DNA of 29,893 bases, taken from a virus. The notes beneath the pieces are model-generated. The model saw nothing but the letters and a program-made list of their open reading frames with translations. It was not told where the DNA came from and did no database searches. Positions 156 to 29,893 of the stretch are shown here, piece by piece. Position 1 is the first letter of the stretch. Every line of letters starts with the position of its first letter. Location of the stretch: UHGV virus genome UHGV-0172517; one strand, written 5' to 3'. A program made the translations under genes and the position numbers.

Positions 156-1086
156 ATTAACCGGCTATGTATGGGATGGTTGCGCTGCGTCAGGCATGAA
201 ATTATCCAGCGTGGCAATTATGGCCCGCCTGGCTGATTTCAGTAATGACGAAGGTGTGTGCTGGCCATCAATTGAAACCATTGCCCGTCAGATTGGCGCG
301 GGGATGAGTACCGTCAGAACGGCTATCGCACGGCTGGAAGCAGAAGGCTGGTTAACGCGTAAGGCGCGTCGCCAAGGTAACCGCAATGCGTCGAATGTTT
401 ATCAGCTTAACGTTGCGAAGCTTCAGGCAGCGGCATTTTCTCAACTGTCAGATTCTGACCCGTCAAAATCTGACGCATCAAAATCTGACCCGTCAAAATT
501 TGATGCGTCGAAATCTGGCAAAAAAGCGGTTTTTCACCCGTCAGAATCTGGCGGGGATCCGTCAGTAAAATCAAAACATGATCCGTCAGATAAAAAAACT
601 TCTCGTCCGGACGCTTCGCAACCGGACACGCAGACGGCTGAACAGGAGTTTTTAACTCGCCATCCTGATGCGGTTGTATTCAGCCCTAAAAAGCGCCAGT
701 GGGGAACGCAGGATGATTTGACCTGCGCACAGTGGCTCTGGAAAAAAATCATCGCCCTGTACGAGCAAGCCGCCGAATGTGACGGCGAGGTGGTTCGTCC
801 CAAAGAACCGAACTGGACAGCCTGGGCAAACGAAATTCGCCTGATGTGTGTGCAGGATGGTCGTACTCATAAACAAATCTGCGAGATGTACAGCCGCGTC
901 AGCCGCGATCCGTTCTGGTGCCGTAACGTGCTCAGCCCGTCGAAGCTGCGGGAAAAATGGGATGAGCTTTCCCTGCGCTTATCGCCGTCCGTAAGCACGT
1001 ACACCGAAAAACGCGAAGACCCGTACTTCAAATCCAGTTACGACAACGTGGACTACAGCCAGATCCCGGCAGGATTCAGGGGGTGA
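145..1086 (+). CDS. O: Lambda O-like replication initiator (distinct N-terminal DNA-binding domain, repeat linker, O-type C-terminal domain)
   Basis: 313 aa ORF with SD-like GAGG upstream. C-terminal segment WANEIRLMCVQDGRTHKQICEMYSRVSRDPFWCRNVLSPSKLREKWDEL closely resembles the lambda O C-terminal domain as I recall it (WANDIRLMRERDGRNHRDMCVLFRWACQDNFWSGNVLSPAKLRDKWTQL). The central SDPSKSDASKSDPSKFDAS linker is encoded by iteron-like DNA repeats. Confidence 0.8.
   Translation: MSTKLTGYVWDGCAASGMKLSSVAIMARLADFSNDEGVCWPSIETIARQIGAGMSTVRTAIARLEAEGWLTRKARRQGNRNASNVYQLNVAKLQAAAFSQLSDSDPSKSDASKSDPSKFDASKSGKKAVFHPSESGGDPSVKSKHDPSDKKTSRPDASQPDTQTAEQEFLTRHPDAVVFSPKKRQWGTQDDLTCAQWLWKKIIALYEQAAECDGEVVRPKEPNWTAWANEIRLMCVQDGRTHKQICEMYSRVSRDPFWCRNVLSPSKLREKWDELSLRLSPSVSTYTEKREDPYFKSSYDNVDYSQIPAGFRG
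447..600. repeat. Candidate replication origin: iteron array inside the O-like gene followed by an A/T-rich tract
   Basis: Seen directly: ~15-bp direct repeats tctgacccgtcaaaa / tctgacgcatcaaaa / tctgacccgtcaaaa / tttgatgcgtcgaaa, each with internal dyad TGAC..GTCA, then aaaaaagcggttttt and further CCGTCAG repeats with A-runs. Architecture parallels ori-lambda, which lies within gene O. Confidence 0.6.
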
Positions 1087-28585: not shown

Positions 28586-29893
28586 ATGGCAGCAGTAAAA
28601 ATCTCAGGTGTGCTGAAAGATGGTGCGGGAAAACCAATACAGAACTGCACTATTCAACTGAAGGCAAAGCGTAACAGCACCACGGTACTGGTGAACACGG
28701 TGGCCTCTGAAAATCCGGATGAAGCCGGGCGTTACAGCATGGATGTTGAGTATGGCCAGTACAGCGTCACCCTGCTGGTTGAAGGTTTTCCGCCTTCACA
28801 TGCCGGGACCATTACCGTCTATGAAGGCTCCAGACCAGGTACGCTGAATGATTTTCTCGGTGCCATGACGGAAGATGATGTCATGCCGGAGGCATTGCGT
28901 CGTTTTGAGGCAATGGTGGAAGAAGTGGCACGCAACGCCGAAGCCGCCTCTCAGAGCGCAGCGGCGGCAAAGAAATCCGAAACTGCAGCGGCATCATCAA
29001 AGAACGCGGCGAAAACCTCAGAAACGAATGCAGCTAACAGCGCACAGGCGGCAGCGTCCTCGCAGACTGCATCGGCAAACTCCGCGACAGCAGCCAAAAA
29101 ATCAGAAACCAACGCGAAAAACAGCGAGACAGCCGCAAAGACGAGCGAAACCAACGCAAAGTCCAGCCAGACGGCAGCGAAAACCAGCGAAACGAATGCC
29201 AAAGCCAGCGAAACTGCGGCAAAAAACAGTCAGGATGCAGCGGCCCAAAGCGAGAGTGCCGCAGCTGGTTCTGCAAGTGCGGCAGCTAATAGCCAAAAAG
29301 CTGCAAAAACCAGTGAAACTAACGCAAAGACGAGTGAAACAAAAGCAGCAGCCAGCGAGATAGAAGCAACGTCAGCCGCAACAAGAGCAGAGAATGCAGC
29401 CCGGATTGCAGAAGATGCCGCTGATCCTGCTTCAGTCCCTCCGCTTCCTGATATCTGGCTACCCTTGAATGATTCTCTGGAAGCGATAACAGGGTATGCC
29501 CCGGGCTATAAAACAATAACCATCGGCAGTGATGAAATAACAATGCCTGTTAATGGCATATGCCAATTTAGCCGCGCTTCATCAGCAACGTATATTGATA
29601 AGTCCGGGCATATTACCGTGGCAGGGAATAACGTTCCTCGTTTTGAAAAATATGGTTTGCTGATAGAGAATCAGCGAACAAACATGTTCGTAAATAGTTT
29701 TAATCCTGATGCGTGGAATAAAAGCGGTGGTATATCTGTAACATCATCAACAGATGAATTTGAGTTTAAATATGGACGTTTCACAGTAGGAAGCGACATA
29801 GCAGGAACGACAACAGGGAGAAATATATGCACAGTTGCTGGTAATAAAGGCATAGATGTGACTGGCGATGATCAGTACAGTAAAGGTCCGTAT
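28586..29893 (+). CDS. stf: Side tail fibre protein Stf-like (5' portion; runs off the window end)
   Basis: Hand-translated open frame of 436 codons with no stop to the window end, so absent from the ORF track. N-terminus MAAVKISGVLKDGAGKPIQNCTIQLKAKRNSTTVLVNTV…GRYSMDVEYGQYSV matches lambda Stf; then an Ala/Ser/Thr-rich repeat region and an AT-rich distal part. Confidence 0.8.
   Translation, partial: MAAVKISGVLKDGAGKPIQNCTIQLKAKRNSTTVLVNTVASENPDEAGRYSMDVEYGQYSVTLLVEGFPPSHAGTITVYEGSRPGTLNDFLGAMTEDDVMPEALRRFEAMVEEVARNAEAASQSAAAAKKSETAAASSKNAAKTSETNAANSAQAAASSQTASANSATAAKKSETNAKNSETAAKTSETNAKSSQTAAKTSETNAKASETAAKNSQDAAAQSESAAAGSASAAANSQKAAKTSETNAKTSETKAAASEIEATSAATRAENAARIAEDAADPASVPPLPDIWLPLNDSLEAITGYAPGYKTITIGSDEITMPVNGICQFSRASSATYIDKSGHITVAGNNVPRFEKYGLLIENQRTNMFVNSFNPDAWNKSGGISVTSSTDEFEFKYGRFTVGSDIAGTTTGRNICTVAGNKGIDVTGDDQYSKGPY
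28960..29345 (+). repeat. Imperfect tandem ~24-nt coding repeats (AKTSETNA-type octapeptides) within stf
   Basis: Recurring gcgaaaacctcagaaacgaatgca / gcgaaaaccagcgaaacgaatgcc / gcaaagacgagcgaaaccaacgca / gcaaaaaccagtgaaactaacgca units. Confidence 0.6.

Follow-up and report, generated by a model that had tools for sequence, protein, structure and literature searches.

The 29,893-nucleotide stretch of viral DNA considered here (UHGV virus genome UHGV-0172517, referred to as the window) probably carries its phage's replication origin at positions 448-603, inside the linker-coding part of the phage's own initiator gene, as ori-lambda lies within gene O. This reading, to which a probability of about 80% is assigned, draws on the anatomy of the element, its homology, constraint at the DNA level, and modular co-inheritance, all of which can be read directly from the sequence. 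The element consists of a tandem array of short repeat units, an A/T-tract spacer, an isolated full unit, and an A+T-rich region with two half boxes (Table 1).

Repeat detection converges on a period of 15 bp. Tandem Repeats Finder reports this period at 454-517 (4.3 copies, 81% matches), together with a period of 30 (88% matches), and a repeat search recovers five to six in-register copies at 15-bp spacing and another 33 bp beyond. With at most two mismatches, the 12-mer TCAAAATCTGAC starts at 448, 463, 478, 493, 508, and 541. The degenerate dyad 12-mer TCARAWTCTGRC, allowing one mismatch, has 11 matches in the 29.9-kb window, nine of them within 447-552; shuffled sequences yield 0.95 on average, and none of 100 shuffles reaches 11. 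Because most sites match on both strands, the units are dyads, with each core in the array reading (G)TCA-5 nt-TGAC, a variable triplet between successive cores, and the encoded peptide forming S-D-x-S-K repeats. An earlier note, made by a model from the sequence alone, had described four to five direct repeats of ~15 bp with an internal dyad. The repeats and the dyad are borne out, and the count is corrected to five units in tandem, one complete isolated unit, and a pair of half boxes. Three further CCGTCAG-containing repeats mentioned in that note are indeed present, at 538, 559, and 583, and CCGTCA(G) also occurs at 460 and 490. The sites at 538, 559, and 583 lie 21 and 24 bp apart and the tandem units 15 bp apart, so the tandem units lack the spacing of about two helical turns (20-24 bp) that is typical of lambda-type iterons. 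The repeats also encode the interdomain linker, as had been stated, and the translation contains SDSDPSKSDASKSDPSKFDASKS. Between the array and the isolated unit, the A6/T5 tract may serve as a bend or a spacer, and its pattern AAAAA-N5-6-GTTTT is kept among relatives.

The A+T-rich region forms the second part of the element. An A/T-rich stretch following the repeats had been recognized before, and it exists, but it had been placed at 517-536 (GGCAAAAAAGCGGTTTTTCAC), which is merely an A6/T5 tract where 40-mers contain 50-57% A+T. The true minimum of duplex stability lies at 561-603. Here, the 40-mers starting at 561-566 have a nearest-neighbour free energy (dG) of -46 to -47 kcal/mol and 70-72% A+T, which makes them the least stable within 100-1100, and the minimum reaches the 99th percentile of all 40-mers in the whole window. 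It adjoins the repeats and overlaps the last two CCGTCAG boxes. DnaA boxes (TTATNCACA, at most one mismatch, both strands) were not found in 1-1200.

The gene that contains these sites encodes an O-like protein. The full-length protein matches phrog_391, 'replication initiation O-like', with E=7e-135, and phrog_277 of the same description is matched as well. Its N-terminal domain (N-domain) spans approximately aa 1-95 (nt 145-429) and contains HTH_36, the sole Pfam family above cut-off in the protein that is relevant to replication; weaker winged-helix matches in this part are GntR, MarR, DnaD_N, and RP-C. Phage_rep_O gave no Pfam match at E<=0.01, the N-domain thus being a different winged helix from that of lambda O, and a sequence search of PDB returned MarR-type winged helices alone (E~0.007). 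In a BLASTP comparison with lambda O, the N-terminal part is left unaligned, and residues 131-277 align to the C-terminal domain of lambda O with 35% identity over 149 aa (E=2e-25). This C-terminal domain (C-domain) matches no family in Pfam or NCBIfam. The earlier designation of the gene as O-like therefore stands, with the homology to lambda O limited to the C-terminal half. The lambda-O-like domain begins at approximately aa 131-153 and the repeats encode aa 102-150, that is, the linker between the two domains.

Constraint on the DNA itself becomes visible when relatives are compared. For this purpose, 80 prophage loci from one-genome-per-species Enterobacterales assemblies, with an N-domain identity of 58-100%, were used along with phage records; codon usage was analyzed at conserved amino-acid columns of 69 non-redundant Enterobacterales loci from many genera. 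Almost all loci share one design, in which SDxSK units are followed by F[DH]P[SP]ESGGDPSV[NK]SKxDPSDKK, and the relatives carry three to eight copies of the 12-mer at 15-bp spacing in the same gene position (tandem units are given as two to eight). In the N-domain, the most frequent codon accounts for a mean fraction of 0.53 over 57 columns. In the block that includes the isolated unit and the boxes, this fraction rises to 0.93-1.00 for TTT GAC CCG TCA GAA TCT .. GAT CCG TCA GTA AAT TCA AAA CAA GAT CCA TCA GAT AAA AAA (the codons of the isolated unit are also given as 0.82-1.00), with 1.00/0.93/1.00/1.00 for the codons GAT CCG TCA GTA of box 1. The GGN codon between the isolated unit and box 1 is free, its top codon reaching 0.46. 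At third codon positions, the loci are 0.46 identical to the window in the N-domain versus 0.76 in the repeat block, and the block is the better conserved of the two in 66 of 68 loci. Codon choice inside the array is likewise skewed, with TCA or TCT used for 81% of serines (26% in the rest of the gene) and AAA for 97% of lysines (63% in the rest of the gene).

A frame shift in two relatives separates the DNA motif from the peptide. In the Stx2a phage L007 and the Citrobacter locus L077, a 1-nt deletion in the A/T tract is compensated by a 1-nt insertion after the unit, so that CACCCGTCAGAATCTGAC is shifted to another frame; the peptide changes from FHPSESG to FTRQNLT and the DNA motif is kept. 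At the level of the sequence, selection is thus seen to act on the DNA beyond the needs of the peptide, as on a cis-acting DNA element, and the SDxSK peptide repeats appear to be largely a by-product of DNA sites read in frame.

The N-domain and the repeats also travel together as a module. They are kept together in 77 of 81 full-length loci and are joined to at least three unrelated C-terminal parts: a lambda-O-like domain (the window and locus L004), Phg_2220_C (phiNP, Eeyore, and many others), and a third type (L007). A natural hybrid initiator, mEp460_4F5 (L002 3157-4137), has a C-domain ~99% identical to that of the window, whereas its N-domain and repeats are unrelated. Its repeats (CATCGGGTCAAAATG) occur in four copies at 23-24 bp and are followed by their own A+T-rich run, with the switch point at window position ~600. 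Five more distant HTH_36 O-like genes, those of mEp460, ST64B, Min27, Klebsiella RAH1, and Vibrio D67, each have their own three to five dyad repeats, the first of which lies 264-332 nt from the gene start. In a Rac-like or CP-933-type cryptic prophage (L093, 2501-4201), a diverged N-domain is accompanied by 15-bp units with altered centres, TCAAnnnTTGAC, and both GATCCGTCAG boxes are kept. The repeat sequence had been said to differ from that of lambda iterons, which is correct; the N-domain differs too, and the two co-vary. Conservation of the repeats with the N-domain across homologous phages had been proposed as a check, and the two are co-conserved, a result that does not refute the origin reading. 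Their co-variation supports the idea that the N-domain and its sites constitute a specificity module.

Some of these relatives show further elements around the initiator. Just past their differing iterons, mEp460, ST64B, RAH1, and D67 share two to three copies of (A)GAACCAGTCA (L088:1810-1849, L090:1810-1849, L091:1808-1848, L092:1768-1795), which are placed as the GATCCGTCAG boxes of the window are and resemble them in sequence. These boxes look like a conserved second class of origin element. The cryptic prophage L093 has ParE/PaaA2, YdaS, and YdaT genes upstream, the same lambda-O-like C-domain, and a DnaC-like (IstB_IS21) gene after the initiator. A possible connection with oriJ, the experimentally active origin of the Rac prophage, was considered and dropped: oriJ is mentioned, and nothing ties it to an HTH_36 O-like gene.

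The mechanism proposed for the origin at 448-603 takes lambda as its analogy for binding, opening, and helicase recruitment (PMC3349717, PMC7466680), and origin activity itself is likewise inferred. The N-terminal winged-helix domain of the initiator would bind the (G)TCA-N5-TGAC dyads, probably as dimers, occupying five abutting sites and one isolated site. As 15 bp corresponds to ~1.4 helical turns, adjacent dimers would lie on almost opposite sides of the DNA. The resulting nucleoprotein complex would then destabilize the adjoining A+T stretch at 561-603 with its two GATCCGTCAG half boxes, after which the lambda-O-type C-terminal domain would bring in the host replicative helicase. A P-type helicase-loader gene is absent directly downstream, where the next genes are PerC/YfdN-like and then Dam methyltransferase, and no P-like or DnaC-like gene follows the initiator in the window. 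For this reason, host DnaB with host DnaC would presumably be recruited directly, perhaps via the conserved ..IPxGFRG tail.

This tail has a distinct distribution among the relatives. In 81 loci (L003-L087), a loader gene comes next in none of the 49 whose initiators end in '..IPxGFRG' ('..GFR..'), and in 8 of the 32 with other tails (DnaC-like in six, lambda-P in two). Homologues of P (PF06992) come directly after the initiator in two relatives only, both with other C-terminal tails. This pattern fits a split between an origin-specificity module and a loader-interaction module, and it suggests that GFRG-tailed initiators may engage host DnaB or DnaC directly. According to the 2025 survey of Casjens and co-workers, 34 of 314 Enterobacterales lambdoid phages carry O-only modules, none of which has been studied experimentally (PMC12315714).

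Potential methylation sites are a further feature of the locus. Two GATC (Dam) sites, at 556-559 and 580-583, fall within the A+T-rich block, where GAT-CCN shows little or no variation across the 69 loci. A DNA methyltransferase gene (Dam PF05869, D12, C5, or MT-A70) is very often found directly 3' of the initiator in loci L003-L087, and its start often overlaps the initiator stop as ATGA; in the window, the Dam gene (1544-2230) is the second gene downstream. A tie between methylation and origin control is possible.

These features can be combined into a more specific and tentative proposal, which, taken as a whole, is rather doubtful. According to this proposal, the element is the origin of a loader-less ('O-only') lambdoid class that departs from lambda in two respects. 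In one, initiator dimers would polymerize on the abutting 15-bp dyads, and the two invariant GATCCGTCAG boxes within the unwinding element would form a second, methylation-sensitive class of sites. These would be recognized by SeqA, or by the initiator in single-stranded form, and would have a connection to the DNA methyltransferase gene so often present after the initiator gene. In the other, the conserved ..IPxGFRG tail would take over the role of protein P and itself capture host DnaB or DnaC.

Several points weigh against an origin of the lambda kind at this site. The literature searched gave no binding, unwinding, or replication data for the element or its close relatives, and the conservation counts are not independent events because the compared sequences are related. 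The step after unwinding is conjecture, since there is no helicase-loader gene. In addition, the head-to-tail packing at 15 bp is unlike the 20-24 bp of lambda and other HTH_36 O-like genes, so the tandem array could be a regulatory or titration array and not a set of initiation sites proper. The units would then still be bound by the initiator, with the array acting as an autoregulatory operator or as a titration/handcuffing array comparable to the control iterons of P1 and F, and replication would start at the isolated unit, at the boxes, or elsewhere. Apart from the packing, such a role is favoured by the tandem copy number, which varies among relatives that keep the isolated unit and the boxes nearly invariant, and by the Rac-like variant L093, in which the boxes remain and the tandem units have diverged. 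However, the array adjoins the stability minimum, where lambda has its iterons, and the window contains no second repeat cluster, nine of the eleven motif matches being located here. There is also no promoter-like site to regulate: a sigma-70 promoter scan of 1-1700 found none, which leaves an embedded promoter or operator without support. A regulatory or titration array is unlikely on balance, and it is the one rival that is still credible.

Variation in the number of SDxSK units between relatives, and the fact that such interdomain linkers are common, would suit a low-complexity, slippage-prone coding repeat that simply specifies a flexible S/D/K-rich linker, the DNA itself having no function. 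This is very improbable, as synonymous sites are nearly fixed in the block and saturated in the N-domain, the preference for Ser TCA/TCT and Lys AAA far exceeds that in the rest of the gene, and L007 and L077 retain the DNA motif in another frame with a different peptide. Moreover, the units are dyad-symmetric on both strands, and unrelated N-domains carry unrelated repeats at the same place. It could also be argued that the block is a mosaic junction spread recently by homologous recombination among lambdoid phages, with no purifying selection on a cis element, given that it sits exactly where C-terminal domains swap and where the module switch of mEp460_4F5 occurs. After a recent sweep, every position should be equally conserved, yet GGN is free (0.46) beside neighbours at 0.93-1.00, a site-specific pattern that argues against mere recent spread of the junction sequence. 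The block is also kept across genera in which third positions of the N-domain are saturated (0.46 identity), and recent spread would leave the tandem dyads and the different repeats of other N-domains unexplained; such an origin of the pattern is accordingly regarded as highly unlikely.

Constraint arising from messenger RNA (mRNA) structure, or from a gene overlapping in another frame, has an even slighter claim and is given almost no credence. As RNA, 440-610 does fold markedly more stably than shuffled controls (z=-4.98) and includes a long hairpin (446-520), and in the window the array is covered by alternative-frame open reading frames (ORFs) 55-60 aa in length. The hairpin, however, is an automatic consequence of the palindromic units, and it has mismatches at the variable triplets. 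Rfam assigns no family in 1-1700, giving only a sub-threshold microRNA match (30.7 vs 97 bits) due to the palindromic array. Across the element, four of the five other frames are interrupted by stops in every one of the 69 loci, and the fifth in 36 of them. The overlapping gene was rejected, as none of these frames is open throughout the element in every locus; the AAT codons of N81 and N84, which supply the alternative-frame ATGs at 386 and 395, are not fixed either (top codon 0.51 and 0.54). Both RNA structure and an overlapping gene leave the A+T-rich block unexplained, and likewise the co-variation with the DNA-binding domain.

Table 1. Features of the initiator gene and its embedded element (window coordinates)
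Feature	Position	Strand	Basis
O-like replication initiator gene, 313 aa	145..1086	+	ORF; 98% DNA identity to SfII/SfIV; phrog_391
Coding region of N-terminal winged-helix domain (Pfam HTH_36, aa 23-70; presumed iteron reader)	211..354	+	Pfam E=4e-11
Tandem array of five 15-bp units (proposed iterons 1-5)	448..519		Cores 448-459, 463-474, 478-489, 493-504, 508-519
A6/T5 tract spacer AAAAAAGCGGTTTTTCA between array and isolated unit	520..536		Sequence
Isolated full unit CCGTCAGAATCTGGC (proposed iteron 6)	537..552		Motif matches; fixed codon choice in 69 loci
GATCCGTCAG box 1, left iteron half plus Dam (GATC) site	556..565		Exact match
A+T-rich region, lowest duplex stability of the gene; proposed DNA-unwinding element	561..603		68-72% A+T
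GATCCGTCAG box 2, 24 bp past box 1	580..589		Exact match
Coding region of C-terminal domain, lambda-O-like; presumed helicase-recruitment part	601..1083	+	BLASTP alignment from aa 131 (nt 535)
C-terminal tail DNVDYSQIPAGFRG	1042..1083	+	Tail type confined to modules without helicase-loader gene after initiator

Beyond the element, the genomic context places the phage, by sequence, among the SfII/SfIV/CPS-53-type lambdoid prophages. Over its first 1.6 kb, the window shares 98% DNA identity with the early-right region found in the Shigella phages SfII and SfIV and in several phages derived from E. coli prophages. The SfII genes run in the order cI, cro, cII, a small DUF4222 gene, the 'O protein family protein', a PerC-family gene, dam, a LexA DNA-binding domain (LexA-DBD) gene, rusA, a KilA-N gene, and Q. 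For the initiator gene, SfII and SfIV carry the annotation 'O protein family' or 'primosomal protein', and PGAP gives the name 'helix-turn-helix domain-containing protein'.

Other repetitive features were observed in the same DNA. The tandem array as a whole forms one long imperfect palindrome (arms 446-480 and 486-520, 74% complementary) because its single units are palindromic, and the DNA could be extruded as a cruciform or, in single-stranded form, fold into a hairpin. On both strands of the whole window, the hexamer CCGTCA occurs 44 times, compared with 16.7 +/- 3.4 expected from dinucleotide shuffles. Additional plus-strand copies at 19, 285, and 311 are located upstream of and inside the N-domain coding region, and codon bias may account for the excess outside the origin. 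At the far end, the 21- and 42-bp tandem repeats at 29086-29347 (AAKTSETNAK-type) belong to a tail-fibre-like ORF running off the window end and are ordinary coding repeats.

In general terms, the element is of a textbook kind, namely iterons and an A+T-rich region inside a lambdoid initiator gene, with specificity swapped by module exchange. Phage replication modules were reportedly catalogued by Weigel and Seitz in 2006 (FEMS Microbiol Rev), and that catalogue may list such iterons. Literature searches with the motif or the peptide gave unrelated primer matches only, the SfIV and SfI genome papers do not describe the origin, and the database records hold no rep_origin feature for the element. 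No description of this particular origin was found in the literature searched. It shows variant traits in its 15-bp packing, in its conserved GATC boxes, and in the lack of a helicase-loader gene. It is also widespread: at >=80% coverage, the initiator gene is present in 1576 of 5426 complete E. coli genomes (29%), where it bears only the PGAP name, and it occurs in the serotype-converting Shigella phages SfII and SfIV and in prophages throughout Enterobacterales. A search of plasmids for a replicon relying on the module alone led to NZ_CP081716.1 (L096), a 37.7-kb circular record deposited as a plasmid, which is a whole phage genome with this module and gives weak evidence of autonomous replication.

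Recognition of the origin and its specificity module is of use in several ways. Annotators could mark rep_origin features, and predictions could be made as to whether prophages residing in one host are incompatible in replication or cross-activate each other. The module also offers a defined substrate for studying how loader-less lambdoid phages start replication, a question that is not understood according to the 2025 survey (PMC12315714). Furthermore, the comparative data illustrate clearly how an embedded DNA element has shaped a protein-coding sequence.

Iteron origins of theta plasmids such as pSC101, R6K, RK2, P1, and F are built on a related plan, in which direct repeats bound by a winged-helix Rep protein adjoin an A+T-rich unwinding element and recruitment of the host helicase involves no phage P protein. 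The iterons of plasmids, of 17-22 bp, usually occupy intergenic DNA at a spacing of ~22 bp, and they are accompanied by DnaA boxes. In contrast, the sites of the window lie inside the rep gene at 15-bp spacing, with no DnaA box in 1-1200. Closer in architecture are the HTH_36 O-like genes of SfV, ST64B, mEp460, Min27, RAH1, D67, and mEp460_4F5, whose proteins are organized in the same way and whose N-domains are 36-45% identical to that of the window. In each, the repeats have a sequence of their own and recur every 21-24 bp, and (A)GAACCAGTCA replaces the GATCCGTCAG boxes in mEp460, ST64B, RAH1, and D67. Several of these genes, such as those of Min27 and RAH1, have a P-like partner gene, unlike that of the window. 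In this respect, the window module fits the O-only lambdoid modules, for example that of phage LLS, in which an O homologue is found without a P, DnaC-like, or helicase gene; the survey that defines them does not describe the origin (PMC12315714).

The principal counterpart is ori-lambda, which comprises four 18-bp iterons at 39034-39118 and a 38-bp A+T-rich region (PMC3349717, PMC7466680). Both origins lie in the middle of the initiator gene, in the linker-coding segment, and both consist of dyad-symmetric direct repeats followed by an A+T-rich region in genes with homologous C-terminal domains. The repeats occupy nt 303-455 of 942 in the window gene, and the annotated lambda iterons nt 348-433 of 900. 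The ori-lambda arrangement proposed in the earlier note is supported by the intragenic dyad repeats, the adjoining A+T-rich minimum, and the near-equal gene offset. The two differ in packing, as the window units abut at 15 bp whereas lambda iterons are spaced at 20, 24, and 23 bp. They differ also in the N-domain, which is of another family (HTH_36), in the repeat sequence, which is unrelated to that of lambda, in the absence of an adjacent P gene, and in the two conserved GATC-containing half boxes inside the A+T-rich part. Immediately to the right of its A+T-rich region, lambda has TTCGTCAGAGAATTCTGGCGAATCCTCTGACC (L095 642-691; lambda 39141-39190), which resembles CCGTCAGAATCTGGCGGGGATCC of the window (537-593), and the lambda palindrome arms GTCAGAG and CTCTGAC resemble the iteron arms of the window. 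When window 564-593 is locally aligned to lambda, 24 of 30 positions match, a score reached by 8 of 1000 shuffles. Part of the origin may share its ancestry with that of lambda.

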